DNA of 64,000 nucleotides from TPA_inf: Saccharomyces (taxonomy: Eukaryota): positions 288,001 to 352,000 of the forward strand of contig BK006942.2 in NCBI GenBank assembly GCA_000146045.2, given 5' to 3'. Shown here one piece after another: positions 11,001-16,476 of the stretch. The first letter of the stretch is position 1. The number at the start of each line of letters is the position of its first letter. The notes beneath the pieces were generated by a model. It made no database searches. It saw nothing but the letters and a program-made list of their open reading frames with translations, and had not been told where the DNA came from. A program made the position numbers and the translations under genes.

Positions 11001-12009
11001 TGTTCTCGTGCTCTTCCGTAGCCTCATCATGATCTAATTCGTCTACGTGGCGAAGGTTTTCAAAATTCCGATGGTCATTAGGATCCTGAGGTGGAACGTT
11101 ATCGTTTCTGGGATTAATAACATTATTATTATTATCTGCTGCTGCGGCTGGCATGTTCAGTCTATCATGACCTTGCTCTTGACGATTTTCGTCATGAGCT
11201 CTCATTTCCCTCGCTAAATATTCAACCATTCTATCATCCATCATGGGGAATCTTTCCTTCAAACGTGATTTCAAGTCCTTGGGAGATAATCTTGGACCTA
11301 TCTTGTGGAAAACCATTTTACTGAAAACATCCTCTCTTACTATCATATCGTATTGAAAGTACAATGCTATATGTAGTATCACTATCATAATAAATTGTAA
11401 AGACGTAAACGAATGGTTTTGTAAAAGTTGGTAAAAAATTGCTCTCGTGGTTAATTCTGGAGTTGCTGACTGATCATAACCATAAATCAAACTCTTTAGG
11501 AAATCACCAGGATAAGGGGATGATCCATCTAGCATCATGGTGTATAATTTTCCAAACATGTTCCATACCAAAGGAACACCGATAATATATAGTACAGCGG
11601 CCAAACCAATCGTTAAAGCCAAACGAGCTTTTTCGAAAAATGTCAAGATGCTCTTGGATAGTAGTAAAGAAAAAGGTATCTTTTCGGGCATGTTTTCCGC
11701 ATATATCGTTTTGAATTGAATGGGATAGTGACAGATGTCACATTTAACATCCGCGCCTGGTTTTGAAATGTCTATATTTTTTGAAGCTACCCATTCCAAC
11801 AGACAGGATTCATGCATGTATTTAATTGAGCCCCTGCATTTACAAGGATGGAAAAGAGGATTGTCCTCAGTAGCTTCTCCACGACAAATACGGCAGGTGG
11901 CGCCGGATGGCGCATCATCATTGAAAGTGGCGGTATCTGTTTCCTCGTTTGCCACCTTATGCAGTTCATCTCTTAACCTGGAGACATTAACGTCAGAATC
12001 AACATCCAT
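8050..12009 (-). CDS. SSM4: ER/nuclear-envelope RING-CH E3 ubiquitin ligase (Doa10/Ssm4)
   Basis: N-terminal RING-CH motif CRICRGE...HPCKCRGSIKYMHESCLLEW followed by many TM segments. The ORF track starts 3 codons upstream at MKV; the annotated protein starts at MDVDSD (1319 aa). Confidence 0.9.
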   Translation of the reverse strand: MDVDSDVNVSRLRDELHKVANEETDTATFNDDAPSGATCRICRGEATEDNPLFHPCKCRGSIKYMHESCLLEWVASKNIDISKPGADVKCDICHYPIQFKTIYAENMPEKIPFSLLLSKSILTFFEKARLALTIGLAAVLYIIGVPLVWNMFGKLYTMMLDGSSPYPGDFLKSLIYGYDQSATPELTTRAIFYQLLQNHSFTSLQFIMIVILHIALYFQYDMIVREDVFSKMVFHKIGPRLSPKDLKSRLKERFPMMDDRMVEYLAREMRAHDENRQEQGHDRLNMPAAAADNNNNVINPRNDNVPPQDPNDHRNFENLRHVDELDHDEATEEHENNDSDNSLPSGDDSSRILPGSSSDNEEDEEAEGQQQQQQPEEEADYRDHIEPNPIDMWANRRAQNEFDDLIAAQQNAINRPNAPVFIPPPAQNRAGNVDQDEQDFGAAVGVPPAQANPDDQGQGPLVINLKLKLLNVIAYFIIAVVFTAIYLAISYLFPTFIGFGLLKIYFGIFKVILRGLCHLYYLSGAHIAYNGLTKLVPKVDVAMSWISDHLIHDIIYLYNGYTENTMKHSIFIRALPALTTYLTSVSIVCASSNLVSRGYGRENGMSNPTRRLIFQILFALKCTFKVFTLFFIELAGFPILAGVMLDFSLFCPILASNSRMLWVPSICAIWPPFSLFVYWTIGTLYMYWFAKYIGMIRKNIIRPGVLFFIRSPEDPNIKILHDSLIHPMSIQLSRLCLSMFIYAIFIVLGFGFHTRIFFPFMLKSNLLSVPEAYKPTSIISWKFNTILLTLYFTKRILESSSYVKPLLERYWKTIFKLCSRKLRLSSFILGKDTPTERGHIVYRNLFYKYIAAKNAEWSNQELFTKPKTLEQAEELFGQVRDVHAYFVPDGVLMRVPSSDIVSRNYVQTMFVPVTKDDKLLKPLDLERIKERNKRAAGEFGYLDEQNTEYDQYYIVYVPPDFRLRYMTLLGLVWLFASILMLGVTFISQALINFVCSFGFLPVVKLLLGERNKVYVAWKELSDISYSYLNIYYVCVGSVCLSKIAKDILHFTEGQNTLDEHAVDENEVEEVEHDIPERDINNAPVNNINNVEEGQGIFMAIFNSIFDSMLVKYNLMVFIAIMIAVIRTMVSWVVLTDGILACYNYLTIRVFGNSSYTIGNSKWFKYDESLLFVVWIISSMVNFGTGYKSLKLFFRNRNTSKLNFLKTMALELFKQGFLHMVIYVLPIIILSLVFLRDVSTKQIIDISHGSRSFTLSLNESFPTWTRMQDIYFGLLIALESFTFFFQATVLFIQWFKSTVQNVKDEVYTKGRALENLPDES

Positions 12010-12227
12010 GACTTTCACACTTCTAGTCTCTTTGATTCAATTAGTGGTACTCTTGGCTAAAAAAACAGTTTTTGAAATCAGTAACAAAGAACTATTCTTA
12101 ACGTAATCTTATGGCTTCATAGATCGGTCATAATCATCTTTTCAATGTCCTCAATCGATGCGTTTTCAACCAGTTTTCCGTCTCTAATGATTTAATTTTT
12201 CTATTGAATTGAAAATGGTAAAAAGAT

Positions 12228-12300
12228 AGCCCTGTAGGGGGCTCGAACCCCTAACCTTATGATTAAGAGTCATACGCGCTACCGATTGCGCCAACAAGGC
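12228..12300 (-). tRNA. tK(CUU): tRNA-Lys (anticodon CUU)
   Basis: Reverse complement reads GCCTTGTTGGCGCAATCGGTAGCGCGTATGACTCTTAATCATAAGGTTAGGGGTTCGAGCCCCCTACAGGGCT, a cloverleaf with a CTT anticodon loop and internal A and B boxes. A T-run lies at the 3' flank. Confidence 0.93.
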
Positions 12301-12354
12301 TATTTCGTTGGAAAAACTACTTATTTTAGGAAGTAATAGCACATTTAAGATGCT

Positions 12355-12407
12355 TGTTGGAATGAAACTTTAAAATATCATCTGTTTAGTACTATTCATG
12401 TTACTAA
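12355..12407 (+). mobile_element. 5' fragment of a Ty1/Ty2 delta LTR
   Basis: TGTTGGAATGAAACTTTAAAATATCATCTGTTTAGTACTATTCATGTTACTAA resembles the delta 5' end (TGTTGGAATAGAAATCAACTATCATCTACTAACTAG...). It abuts the next LTR. Confidence 0.5.
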
Positions 12408-12727
12408 TTAAGATATGGGTGAATTTTGAGATAATTGTTGGGGGTTCCATTGTTGATAAAGGCTTATAATATTATGTATACGGAATATACTAGAAGTTCT
12501 CCTCGAGGATCTAGGAATCCTCATAATGGAATCTATATTTCTATATACTAATATTACGATTATTCCTCATTCCGTTTTATATGTTTCATTCTCCTATTAC
12601 ATTATCAATTTTTGTATTTCAGCTTCCTCTAACCTCGATGACAGCTTCTCATAATTTACGCCATCCTCTTACACCGCATGTGATGCTATTACTACTAAAT
12701 AGATAACATTAGAATTTCATTCCAACA
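12408..12727 (-). mobile_element. Solo Ty1/Ty2 delta LTR in reverse orientation, upstream of tK(CUU)
   Basis: Reverse complement matches the delta consensus (...TTCACCCAT...GAGGATTCCTA.CCTCGAGGAGAACTT...TATAAAACGGAATGAGGAA...) and ends with TGTTGGAA at 12727. It is the inverse of the delta at 36831. Confidence 0.8.
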
Positions 12728-12828
12728 GCTTTAGTCTGTTTTAATAAACGCAACAGCACCATAATGTTATTAATTTTAATAAAGCCAAATTATGGCCTGC
12801 TGATTTCTTTTCATTGGTAAAAGTTCTA

Positions 12829-13257
12829 TCACCCGTTCCCCATTAGTATGATAACCGATAAATAAACTCTATTACCTGGTTTCTTCGTTCCAGGAACGTT
12901 TATACCCTGACTACACATTTCTTTTGAAAAATAGGCCAATTGAACAATTAAGTTAGAAGCGGTTAGAAAAAGGTATAATAGGAAAAAATGCATCCAATTT
13001 TTACAGTTGAACCACTTGGGGGATTTTATTCTCGTATTGTAGCGGGAGCATTTTATCTTCGTACATCTTGGAAGCTGTAGATTAATCTTATTCCTATATG
13101 CTCCTTCAATCCACACAGCAAACCCCCAAATGGAAACGATCACTGAGTATGTTATAAACCAGCTTACGCTTATACTATTATCAAAATTCAAAAGATTGAA
13201 CGGGGAAAATGGTAGAAATGAATATTGAAGCATTTTCGCAATGAAAATTAACCGCAT
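12829..13257 (-). CDS. Small putative membrane protein of unknown function (YIL029C; paralog of YPR071W)
   Basis: 142-aa ORF with two or three hydrophobic helices. Position matches YIL029C. Confidence 0.6.
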   Translation of the reverse strand: MRLIFIAKMLQYSFLPFSPFNLLNFDNSISVSWFITYSVIVSIWGFAVWIEGAYRNKINLQLPRCTKIKCSRYNTRIKSPKWFNCKNWMHFFLLYLFLTASNLIVQLAYFSKEMCSQGINVPGTKKPGNRVYLSVIILMGNG

Positions 13258-14099
13258 TGTTTTTATAGTAATTCTGATGGCTAACGGCGGTAATACAGCA
13301 TCCTTACGAAGAGCGGGAATAGTTCATTTGCCCTCTTTGATGGTTTGCATAACTGCGTTGTTGATTGTCTTAGGAATGGAAATATTTAACAAATATACCT
13401 ATAATGAAAAAAGGGTCCTTCTTTTTAATTATTATTGGCAGCGAAAAAGTTGTCCCAGCTTCTACTTTTTTTCCCGTTAAAAAAGGAAGCGGCGGAAGCT
13501 GATCTACTCTCTAATAATAGACTACTCACTCGCATCTTGGTAACGAGTCCCTTTAAGATCTTGGTACATAAAGTTTGCTGCAGCAAAAAGGGCTTATTTG
13601 CGCATTCATGATATTAAACAACACCCTGTTTAGCGTGTTAATGATCCTTGTTTTATGCCAGTATATTCTGTATACCTTATAATAGAGTCAACAGTTAAAT
13701 CCTAATCATTACCTCAGGACTTACCTATTTCTGAATATCATGGTCCACCATTCTACCTCAGTGAATTGATTGAACCGCACCATTGGAATTGTCATGGTGA
13801 GCCAGCGTGCTACAACTTCATGATTTTACGAGCTGAAAAAACACGCCCTTAGGCATAAAAACTCAATGGAAATCTGTAAAACAAAATAAATTTCGCTTTT
13901 TAACTTGGCCTAATGGGAATACTTTAACAATTGAACCTGTCACTAAATCAGAGGAAGTACATGCCTAATTACTCAAAGCTGTATTTAACTAATTTACCTA
14001 TACTATCGCCAGGCATTCAAGGATGAAGACATGCGTCAATGCAAATAGTGACGGCTGCTGCATTAAAGAGGTGCTGCGTGGTGTAGAAAAGGCAATAAC

Positions 14100-14498
14100 A
14101 TGGACGATGCAAGGTTATTCAGACGCGTTGTTTGTATGCCATTTCCAATGATAATGTTGGTTGCGTTATATAGAAATGTGTTAGGAAGAGATTCTACAGT
14201 TGATTGCAGCTTTGACGTTATACTTACACCTTGGATAATGGCCAGTATGTTTTCCAAACGTATGGTGAATTGGTCTAATCCACGTCAAGCTGTTTTAAAA
14301 GTATGCAGCGCAGCCGTGACCTCCCGGATAGTTGCCAATTGGTTGTTTACGATGAACATATTATATACCAGTGGTGAAAAGGGTTTTTACTCGCTAGCAA
14401 CAGCTGTGGTAATTAAAACGGTCACTGATGGGTTTACGGTGATACGGGTTTTCTCTATTCACCTGAACGAGTCAGTATATAGCAAGCCATTACCATAA
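14100..14498 (+). other. 132-aa ORF (dubious YIL028W). It is the first of three consecutive same-strand ORFs in different frames, a possible gene relic.
   Basis: The ORF ends at 14498 and the next begins at 14501 in another frame. See findings. Confidence 0.2.
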
Positions 14499-15678
14499 CA
14501 TTGGGTAACGTCGCACGCAACACAGCTGCGGGTGTGTGTGGTGATTGGTTAGTCAATTGGTCATTTGGGCTGGTAATAGGGCATGTTCCCCTTACAGCTT
14601 GTACTGTCTCATTGGGGTTTGCTCTTATTGCTGGAATAATAAATGGAAAGGTTAACGACGACACAAATGGTTTTCGACGACCAAAACAAATTAGCAAATG
14701 GCAACCTTTTGTATTAGGGCTAATTAATGTAAGCGATGTTACCATTTTGTCTATTTCTGGCGGTGGACTGGTAGCTTCTTCATGTGGAGGTGCAATAGGC
14801 TATGCTACTGTCATTAAAACTGTTGCTACCACAAATGCACGTTTCGCGATTACTGAGGTGATCAAGGAAATAGTTATTCGTTATTCATCACAATTAAATG
14901 CAGAAAAAGTTTGTGAAGAATAAAAAACTCGAGCCGGGTGGTAAATTGTTTTAGTACGGTTAGCATCGGTTTAGTACCTGTACCAATATGTGTCACTTTT
15001 GTTATTTCTGCAGGCGATAATACTTATAATAAACGCATACATGATATCATAACTGCCTTTATACGGCACCTTACAACTAGCATGGGCGTTCAAGTGGTGG
15101 AGAACTATTACCTGTTCCTGAAATAACAGAATGAATCATCAATAAGGGCTTGTCTGTACCTCAGGATGATTTGAACAAGTTCCACTTACGCTAACATGAG
15201 GATGAATATCGTACTTATACTATGTAAACTGGAATAGAAATATTCCGAACGGTTATCCATTAGAGTGTTAGCCCTCAAACCGAGACTCTCGATAATATTG
15301 AATAGAAGATTTTACCACTAAATTTAGTGTGTATTTATGTATCTTAATAACAAACTATCCAACGAAGACGCAAAAGATACTATCCGCCCCGTAATCCTTT
15401 TGAAACCACTCAAGCTTATGGTTCACGTTATAGAACACAGGAGACGCTTGCATTATTGGTGATTCTAATATAGCTTTCTATTCCTCTATGAAAGGCGTCT
15501 GTGTTGGTGTAAATAGAAGAGGTGCCTGGTCACCTGACGCCTTATTTTGTGCAGTTACGATGTTCGAGTAGATTCGCTATCGAATTTATGCTCAAAATCT
15601 AGCTAATCCTCTTATTAGATCTTGATATGTATATATGTATGAAATTATAAGTTCTAGCTCTAGTTTTCAGTATCTTAT

Positions 15679-16104
15679 TTATTTTTCTTTTTTTACAGTG
15701 TTAGAGGCCCATTCCCTGCAAATTTTTCTCTTCATATGAACGTCAACAAAGCTTGGAGTAAATATGATCTCACCATTAGGGTTACTTCCTATCAAGTTAT
15801 CCACGTTGGTGGCTTTATTTAATGCGATTTCTTTTAGATAGTTTCCTTGGGATATTATCTTCCCATCGTTACTCTCAATTGGTAAATATTGTAATTTCTC
15901 GAACGAAGTGAACACTGCAAGAACAAAGAGTATCAATCCTGCATACGTTTCATACATGATATCTTTAGGTAACTTGCTGATTGCACCTTGTGCATTATTA
16001 AGCGAGTTAAGTTTTAATAAGTGATGAAACTCATAGCTTGAGAAACCAGAATGAAATAACACCAATGCAGAGACTGTATAGAGAAGCTTGGAAACAAACG
16101 ACAT
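15679..16104 (-). CDS. EMC5: ER membrane protein complex subunit 5
   Basis: 141-aa ORF with two TM helices. Recognised as Kre27/Emc5 by sequence and by position next to IRR1. Confidence 0.8.
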   Translation of the reverse strand: MSFVSKLLYTVSALVLFHSGFSSYEFHHLLKLNSLNNAQGAISKLPKDIMYETYAGLILFVLAVFTSFEKLQYLPIESNDGKIISQGNYLKEIALNKATNVDNLIGSNPNGEIIFTPSFVDVHMKRKICREWASNTVKKEK

Positions 16105-16476
16105 CTCTTGATAATTGCTTTTTTGTATCTCGGTAGGGCTTAATTACGATCGCTTTTTAGATGCTACAATTAACATGCATAACAACTATCTGAGTTGACT
16201 TTATTTTATATTCAAAAGTAGATTTTTCTGCGCTGCGTTTACATCGCGAGTTTTCGAAGAAGCAAAGGGCGCTTTGATGACGATTGAATGGGCTTGGAAA
16301 ATACATAGCCGAATATCATCCAGCGAGTATAGTCTAATGCGAAGGGATATTTGAAGTATTTATGATTAATCAAAAACTGCTAACGAAGCTATGTATGTTC
16401 AAAAGAAAGATGTGATATATATTATAGATCTTATTGTTTTACAAAAGAGCAATAAGTCTGACGTATATCTTTTCCC

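Follow-up and report, generated by a model that had tools for sequence, protein, structure and literature searches.

Positions 14023 to 14923 on the plus strand of the window, by which we mean the whole 64,000-nucleotide (nt) stretch of Saccharomyces cerevisiae DNA analysed here, are very probably the remains of a single gene: a unitary pseudogene of approximately 300 codons, whose parent would have encoded a membrane protein that is found only in the genus Saccharomyces. We take the gene order in the window to be SSM4, tK(CUU), a solo long terminal repeat (LTR), YIL029C, the interval of interest, EMC5 and IRR1, an order that identifies the window as part of S. cerevisiae chromosome IX. The parent gene occupies the slot between tK(CUU) and EMC5, where S. 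kudriavzevii ZP591 and S. pastorianus, the latter in its S. eubayanus subgenome, still have it intact. An initial annotation, made from the letters of the window, had drawn attention to this interval because of three consecutive open reading frames (ORFs), which it regarded as a probable decayed gene:

14100-14498, plus strand: ORF1, 132 amino acids (aa), ATG start; the dubious ORF YIL028W of SGD
14501-14923, plus strand: ORF2, 140 aa, TTG start, no ATG
14938-15126, plus strand: ORF3, 62 aa, GTG start

These ORFs lie exactly where the initial annotation had placed them, on the same strand and in three different frames, with gaps of 2 nt and 14 nt between them, and their stop-to-stop open runs measure 143, 146 and 69 codons, respectively. 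No further ORF of at least 100 aa is present between YIL029C and EMC5. The slightly raised GC (guanine plus cytosine) content that had been remarked upon is also there, with values of 0.41-0.46 over 14000-14750 against 0.36-0.38 in the flanks. To the claim that such frames would hardly arise by chance we can now attach numbers. When the interval 13480-15650 was shuffled 3000 times with preservation of its dinucleotides, at least one open run of at least 140 codons turned up in 2.1% of the shuffles; 0.03% had two such runs on the same strand, and a pair of adjacent runs never occurred (0%), so that chance is excluded as the source of the ORF pattern in S. cerevisiae.

Intact homologues at the syntenic slot

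The syntenic regions in other assemblies were reached by using the orthologues of EMC5 as anchor. The loci compared were those of the S. eubayanus subgenome of S. pastorianus (L001), S. eubayanus (L002, presumably strain FM1318), S. kudriavzevii ZP591 (L003), S. arboricola (L005) and S. uvarum (L006-L008), together with an S. kudriavzevii-type contig (L004; AGVY01000257.1, assembly GCA_000326105.1) which, going by its accession prefix AGVY, we take to come from the hybrid VIN7. Between EMC5 and SSM4, on the equivalent strand, the gene calls measure 330 aa in S. kudriavzevii, 281 aa in S. pastorianus and 258 aa in S. eubayanus. In all loci, the ORF in the slot between tK(CUU) and EMC5, on the strand that corresponds to the plus strand of the window, was scored as follows:

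S. kudriavzevii ZP591 (SKDZ_09G1340, P0032, a hypothetical protein): intact, 330 codons
S. pastorianus, S. eubayanus allele (P0041): intact, 328 codons
S. eubayanus FM1318: same ORF, interrupted by a single nonsense codon (W259*)
VIN7, S. kudriavzevii-type allele: W201* and a 1-nt deletion (nt 259)
S. uvarum, three assemblies: ORF in three pieces, two frameshifts
S. arboricola: remnant of approximately 90 codons only

Null alleles segregate in both S. eubayanus (L001 versus L002) and S. kudriavzevii (L003 versus L004). The two S. kudriavzevii alleles, those of ZP591 and VIN7, show 10 nonsynonymous differences and 1 synonymous difference. The orthologous minus strands are not open.

In tblastn searches, the S. 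kudriavzevii protein was collinear with the window in three frames. Its residues 1-25 correspond to 14023-14097 (44% identity), residues 35-135 to 14124-14423 in the YIL028W frame, and residues 175-321 to 14468-14911 in the ORF2 frame, and residues 100-208 of the S. eubayanus protein correspond to 14441-14767, with 40% identity over 110 aa and an expectation value (E) of 1e-16. Six sequences of the family align collinearly over their whole length, from a conserved start (MK[TI]C...) through the stop, and share the central motif TAxGVCGxW(F/L)VxW...G...VSLxxALxAxxxNxxVN. The initial annotation had proposed that the three ORFs descend from one continuous ORF, and had named an intact orthologous ORF in another species as the finding that would confirm this; the intact homologue in sibling species, which matches the window over several frames by tblastn and by synteny, provides that confirmation.

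Anatomy of the probable relic and its lesions

Homology to these intact ORFs in all likelihood delimits the relic to 14023-14923 on the plus strand, approximately 300 codons, and makes YIL028W one fragment of it. Much of the anatomy given here was read from an alignment with Sx, a set of contigs from a synthetic metagenome (L009-L011) that was found through the 68-aa fragment P0042 in a search of a representative library. The Sx contigs align end to end with positions 13644-15797 of the window, at identities of 82-85%; counted over aligned bases, the value is approximately 86%, and in BLAST, where gaps are included, it is 82%. The ancestral reading as reconstructed comprises 299 codons, with two frameshifts and one stop:

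14023-14121, plus strand: putative N-terminal relic segment, with the ancestral ATG at 14023 (MKTCVNANSDGCCIKEVLRGVEKAITW...), inside a 42-aa ORF (14023-14151)
14122-14123, plus strand: lesion 1, a 1-nt deletion specific to S. cerevisiae, seen as a gap at 14122 in the alignment with Sx
14124-14426, plus strand: putative second relic segment, in the YIL028W frame, collinear with S. kudriavzevii residues 35-135, in agreement with the family alignment
14427-14428, plus strand: lesion 2, a 1-nt deletion specific to S. cerevisiae, seen as an alignment gap at 14426
14429-14923, plus strand: putative C-terminal relic segment, in the ORF2 frame, ending at the ancestral stop TAA at 14921-14923
14480-14482, plus strand: lesion 3, the nonsense codon TAG (TGG>TAG), in the ORF2 frame, common to S. 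cerevisiae and Sx

The start at 14023 has been retained in S. uvarum as well as in VIN7 copy A, which is a truncated further copy of the gene on the VIN7 contig (see below). From the ATG equivalent to 14023, Sx reads directly into the YIL028W frame and is continuous at the site of lesion 1, where the reading in S. cerevisiae shifts from the 14023 frame to that of YIL028W; the divergent S. cerevisiae strain L012 has the same frame structure at this lesion. The first hydrophobic segment of the family falls at the homologous position in the second relic segment. At lesion 2, GGTCACT-GATGGG in S. cerevisiae aligns with GGTCACCGGATGGG in Sx, and both Sx and VIN7 copy A stay in a single frame across it (...TVTGWVYGDT...). 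Because of this deletion at approximately 14426, the last 24 codons of YIL028W, up to 14498, lie outside the ancestral frame.

The nonsense codon at 14480-14482 is probably the oldest of the three lesions. The S. kudriavzevii copy A of VIN7 has TGG (Trp) at this position, and the readings around it are R V S I [stop] Q A I in S. cerevisiae, R I S I [stop] Q A I in Sx and E R F N T W Q A I in VIN7 copy A. Since S. cerevisiae and Sx both carry the TAG, it would predate their split. The change from TGG to TAG would thus have come first, and the two 1-nt deletions would have followed in S. cerevisiae only. Sx has acquired at least three frameshifts of its own, which differ from the lesions in S. 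cerevisiae.

ORF3 (14938-15126) lies downstream of the ancestral stop and past the C-termini of the intact proteins, and these proteins gave no tblastn match to it, so by homology ORF3 is not part of the ancestral gene. S. cerevisiae strains vary by small indels at the end of ORF2 and the start of ORF3 (14900-14960), and differing short proteins of 65-75 aa are predicted from them (P0036-P0038), which fits unconstrained DNA.

This anatomy revises the initial annotation in several respects. YIL028W and ORF2 stand as two of the three frames of the gene, but the place of ORF3 is taken by the 42-aa frame that begins at the ATG at 14023. The two frameshifts that had been deduced are present, as the 1-nt deletions at approximately 14122 and 14426, but they come with an additional TAG, and the break between YIL028W and ORF2 does not coincide with the gap between 14498 and 14501. 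The ancestral length of approximately 335 codons, which had been derived from the three ORFs, does not hold, as it is approximately 300 here and 328-330 in other species. A motif had been reported to be shared by the first two translations, and indeed 14409-14422 and 14810-14823 are 86% identical over 14 nt, but the DGFTV part of it is out of the ancestral frame. The ancestral protein had for this reason been suspected to be internally repetitive, and what speaks for that now is a weak repeat in the S. kudriavzevii protein, in which residues 108-139 and 205-236 are 41% identical over 32 aa (pairwise E = 7e-4).

Sequencing errors, which the initial annotation had wanted to see excluded as the source of the frameshifts, do not explain the lesions, since the same frames are shared by many independent S. 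cerevisiae assemblies, including those of strains that carry the killer-toxin gene KHR1 and that of the divergent strain L012. The latter adds one more frameshift, in ORF2. The relic is 85.7% identical to Sx, compared to 85.4% and 87.6% for its two flanks, and at codon positions 1, 2 and 3 it diverges from Sx by 15.2, 16.0 and 12.1%, respectively (chi-square p = 0.37). With a divergence at the level of the flanks and no codon periodicity, the relic has drifted like non-coding DNA since the split from Sx. It would be expected to make no functional protein in S. cerevisiae.

The proposed parent gene and alternative explanations

The parent was probably a hydrophobic multi-pass membrane protein. 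Four to five hydrophobic segments, each of 19 residues, occur at homologous positions of the alignment in the intact proteins, which have a GRAVY (grand average of hydropathy) value of 0.4-0.5 and a composition rich in A, L, V, I and S. The base composition by codon position is coding-like, with G at 0.32-0.34 in position 1 and T at 0.34-0.36 in position 2. In Zygosaccharomyces bailii (L018, 8461-9071), the order is SSM4, tK(CUU), CDC26 and EMC5, with CDC26 on the same strand as the relic, and there is no homologue of the parent ORF in this slot. Because of this, and because relatives are lacking elsewhere, the parent appears to be an orphan that is restricted to Saccharomyces and arose after the whole-genome duplication (WGD). 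The orphan ORF of Saccharomyces sits in the place of the lost CDC26 ohnologue. A relic of this ohnologue was considered as an identity for the frames and rejected, as tblastn with two CDC26 proteins found nothing in the window or in the intervals of the sibling species. Membership of the DUF4668 family, to which the neighbour YIL029C belongs, was rejected as well, the intact proteins giving no hit to PF15701 and hhalign against YIL029C a probability of 0.7%. When eight open-frame fragments of the window, four per strand, were compared with Pfam, nothing rose above noise, and a large-database search with the concatenated plus-strand reading returned only automated spliced S. cerevisiae models. 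The sole match of the family outside the genus, an animal Ig-repeat protein of 1074 aa (P0039), consists of six weak repeats with approximately 30% identity over 60 aa, against a region present in S. kudriavzevii only, and was judged to be a false positive inflated by repeats.

Several observations weigh against the interpretation as a pseudogene of a genuine protein-coding gene, or against parts of it. Profile searches of 5.8 billion and of 1.84 billion proteins returned only Saccharomyces sequences of this locus, and neither a profile search of the PDB, nor Pfam for the intact proteins, produced a match or a distant homologue. The AlphaFold2 model of SKDZ_09G1340, which was based on a six-row alignment, is all-helical, with a predicted local distance difference test score (pLDDT) of 44.8 and a predicted template modelling score (pTM) of 0.30, and is of too low a quality to be used in a fold search. 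No purifying selection on the amino acid sequence is apparent: between S. eubayanus and S. uvarum, the ratio of nonsynonymous to synonymous substitution rates (dN/dS) is 0.9-1.26, compared to 0.08 for the neighbouring EMC5, the divergence is even over the codon positions (22.8, 25.5 and 21.5%), and the DNA of the ORF has diverged as much as, or more than, the flanking intergenic DNA. The N-terminal half of the relic has 47% amino acid identity with the truncated VIN7 copy A, as against 26% with the ORF that S. kudriavzevii has in the native position, so that the relic and the latter ORF may be strict orthologues, or may instead descend from an old paralogue or haplotype. Finally, the divergence of Sx is that expected for S. 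paradoxus, this level of divergence being the sole ground for the species label.

The orphan status, the poor structure prediction and the evolutionary rates are also what would be expected if the homologous ORFs were real, but their parent had been a long-lived proto-gene or a non-genic ORF in a T-rich region that never encoded a functional protein, its frame having stayed open by accident or for causes unconnected with a protein product. The loss in S. cerevisiae would then not have been that of a gene. In favour of this are a dN/dS of approximately 1 without codon-position asymmetry, a divergence at the intergenic level, the lack of relatives beyond the locus among the 1.84 billion representative proteins, and the null alleles that segregate within S. 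eubayanus and S. kudriavzevii. However, a frame without selection should not last so long. In a simulation of frame survival with substitutions only and no indels, the probability that the ORF stays open was 0.026 after 11.5% change and 0.0012 after 25% change, which puts the neutral chance at 0.1-3%, and lower when indels are counted. Moreover, two deep lineages keep the same start, stop register and length, and S. uvarum has only two frameshifts at approximately 23% divergence from S. eubayanus. Because there are just two, most of the divergence between these species would have arisen while the frame was open. The conserved pattern of hydrophobic segments, the conserved central motif and the coding-like composition of codon positions argue in the same direction, and we regard a proto-gene as improbable.

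The frame of the parent thus seems to have been protected while its sequence was not. Amino acid identity among lineage A (S. cerevisiae, Sx and VIN7 copy A), lineage B (S. kudriavzevii) and lineage E (S. eubayanus and S. uvarum) is only 26-28%, the two intact ORFs being approximately 27% identical. The parent may have been kept open by selection for most of the history of the genus, with its amino acid sequence barely constrained, and would nevertheless have been dispensable and repeatedly lost. Such a frame without sequence constraint could be explained by a membrane protein that tolerates very many changes, by recurrent positive selection or by some other cause.

We consider it very unlikely that the S. 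cerevisiae frames are chance openings in non-coding DNA, with YIL028W spurious and no gene ever present. Published work does treat YIL028W as a spurious ORF and a neutral control. The absence of Pfam hits and the neutral drift between S. cerevisiae and Sx would suit this view too, but neutral drift is precisely what a pseudogene should show, and chance explains neither the adjacent runs of at least 140 codons, absent from all 3000 shuffles, nor the intact ORFs of 328-330 codons that are collinear with the window in two species, down to the tblastn E value obtained with S. eubayanus.

Even less credible is a gene that still functions in S. cerevisiae by means of an intron, programmed frameshifting or separate small proteins. 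Automated annotations predict spliced proteins of 213 aa and 193 aa that join two frames (P0001 and P0002), and YIL028W has an ATG and keeps its length of 132 aa in many strains. The spliced-gene model was nevertheless rejected, since the canonical signals of yeast introns are absent from 14000-15000: there is no TACTAAC or near variant, the proposed 5' splice site is GTATGC instead of GTATGT, and the proposed intron would remove sequence that is homologous to a coding part of the intact proteins. The positions of the frameshifts differ between S. cerevisiae and Sx, with an extra one in L012, and are thus not programmed, ORF2 is without an ATG, and there is no constraint at the codon level. 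A strain overexpressing YIL028W served as control in two studies, in one of which it had the chronological lifespan usual for the medium-lifespan class.

The second copy in VIN7 is part of a 3.6-kb insert in the SSM4-to-EMC5 interval of L004 (184-3860), upstream of the type-B ORF; ZP591 lacks this insert. It comprises a frameshifted homologue of KHR1, with 68.5% aa identity, a segment resembling an LTR, a homologue of YIL029C, with 78% nt identity, and the truncated type-A copy of the relic gene, which stops at the equivalent of 14508, where half a tRNA-Lys, 49 nt long, is fused to it. The insert could have arisen by tandem duplication, or could represent an old haplotype or a misassembly. A chimera in S. 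cerevisiae of a type-A N-terminal half and a type-B C-terminal half was set aside, because both halves of the relic are about equally far from the S. kudriavzevii ORF (22-27% identity).

The tRNA-adjacent neighbourhood and known systems

The relic lies beside a hotspot of presence/absence variation. Aside from the frames described above, the interval and its borders contain the following features, which are given as context only:

12227-12301, minus strand: tRNA-Lys(CUU), the conserved left anchor, found by ARAGORN and Rfam
12355-12727, strand not assigned: solo Ty LTR, with inverted termini TGTTGGAAT...ATTCCAACA
12829-13257, minus strand: YIL029C, the left neighbour of the relic and a member of the DUF4668 (YPR071W) family (Pfam PF15701, E = 6e-37)
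15679-16104, minus strand: EMC5, the right neighbour

An Rfam scan of 12000-16200 found the tRNA only. In every Saccharomyces locus examined, as in Z. bailii, the tK(CUU) gene adjoins SSM4. KHR1 is found between tK(CUU) and YIL029C in many strains of S. cerevisiae (bioRxiv 10.1101/2023.09.07.545205; PMC10542562). Two of the strains compared here, L013 and L014, have an intact KHR1 of 296 aa between two LTR copies, the segment 12418-12731 of the window being present twice. The gene is situated at 770-1672 of their SSM4-to-EMC5 interval, on the minus strand, where S288C has a single solo LTR. The solo LTR of the reference looks like the product of a recombination between two LTRs that removed KHR1.

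In strain L012, 829 nt are missing (window 12627-13455; L012 2380-2386), a stretch that includes the whole of YIL029C together with the right end of the LTR. Both edges of this deletion carry the 7-nt sequence CAGCTTC, which suggests a deletion by microhomology. As YIL029C is deleted in this divergent strain, it is a presence/absence polymorphism.

The proximity of KHR1 led us to consider a pairing of toxin and immunity gene. Such a pairing is not supported by co-occurrence, because the relic is broken in the same way in the KHR1 strains L013 and L014, and a KHR1 homologue is missing from the locus in the species with an intact ORF (ZP591 and S. eubayanus). In a broader form, the parent of the relic would have belonged to an accessory cassette next to the tRNA gene, made up of KHR1, the DUF4668 gene and the membrane ORF, with dynamics of the type seen in genetic conflict, which we regard as a speculative scenario of low probability. 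The frame would then be kept while the sequence changes at the neutral rate or faster, the deep allelic or paralogous lineages A, B and E would persist across species, and null alleles would recur. The product would confer resistance or immunity to a toxin, or would be a selfish membrane protein, and not the product of a housekeeping gene, and the 'dubious ORF' of S288C would be the fossil of one round of conflict.

In the literature, we found no paper that links YIL028W to a pseudogene. If the pseudogene interpretation is correct, an ORF that has been used as a 'meaningless' control gains a concrete origin as a fragment of a unitary pseudogene, and an unannotated gene loss is added to the S. 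cerevisiae lineage, which probably took place before the split from its closest relative. The parent would be an orphan whose frame was kept without detectable amino acid constraint and that was lost independently at least four times, which makes the locus a tractable case of how orphan membrane-protein genes persist and die. Situated next to tK(CUU), a Ty LTR, KHR1 and YIL029C, it also bears on the debate about a mobile-element origin of restricted yeast genes near tRNA genes.

Yeast gene relics and disabled ORFs are reportedly treated in the classic surveys of Lafontaine et al. 2004 and Harrison et al. 2002. The relic described here resembles them in its few frameshifts and nonsense codon, its adjacent open frames in different phases and its neutral drift, and in being recognisable only through homology to an intact gene. 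The classical relics are said to have been found by their similarity to paralogues or to conserved hemiascomycete proteins. The present one differs, since it has neither a paralogue in S. cerevisiae nor a homologue outside the genus, and is revealed only by synteny with sibling species.

The closest counterparts are SKDZ_09G1340 and the 328-aa ORF, which share the slot, the strand, the start and stop register, the hydrophobic pattern and the motif TAxGVCGGWFxxWL...VSLxVALVAAxxN. Unlike these intact ORFs, the copy in the window is broken, and they are only approximately 26% identical in amino acids to its reconstructed reading.

The DUF4668 (YPR071W) family, which is located beside tRNA genes (PMC2675101; bioRxiv 10.64898/2026.08.24.746667) and whose members YIL029C, YLR036C, YIL089W and YPL257W were gained after the WGD beside such genes (Gordon et al. 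2009, PMC2675101), is a parallel of another kind. Like this family, the parent is restricted to Saccharomyces, very divergent, hydrophobic and situated beside a tRNA gene and LTRs, and in the S. kudriavzevii-type allele of VIN7 the member YIL029C travels with a copy of the relic ORF. Unlike it, the parent has approximately 300-330 aa instead of the 142 aa of YIL029C, no sequence relationship to the family, and no paralogue was found.

The coexistence of functional and decayed alleles of one locus within a species is reminiscent of the GAL polymorphism of S. kudriavzevii, in which the genes are intact in ZP591 and pseudogenes in IFO 1802 (PMC3276118), although the GAL genes encode conserved enzymes of known function, whereas the parent of the relic evolves at a nearly neutral rate. 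In kind, we regard the relic as an ordinary unitary pseudogene, and the novelty lies in having identified it, in its corrected anatomy and in the odd behaviour of its orphan parent.

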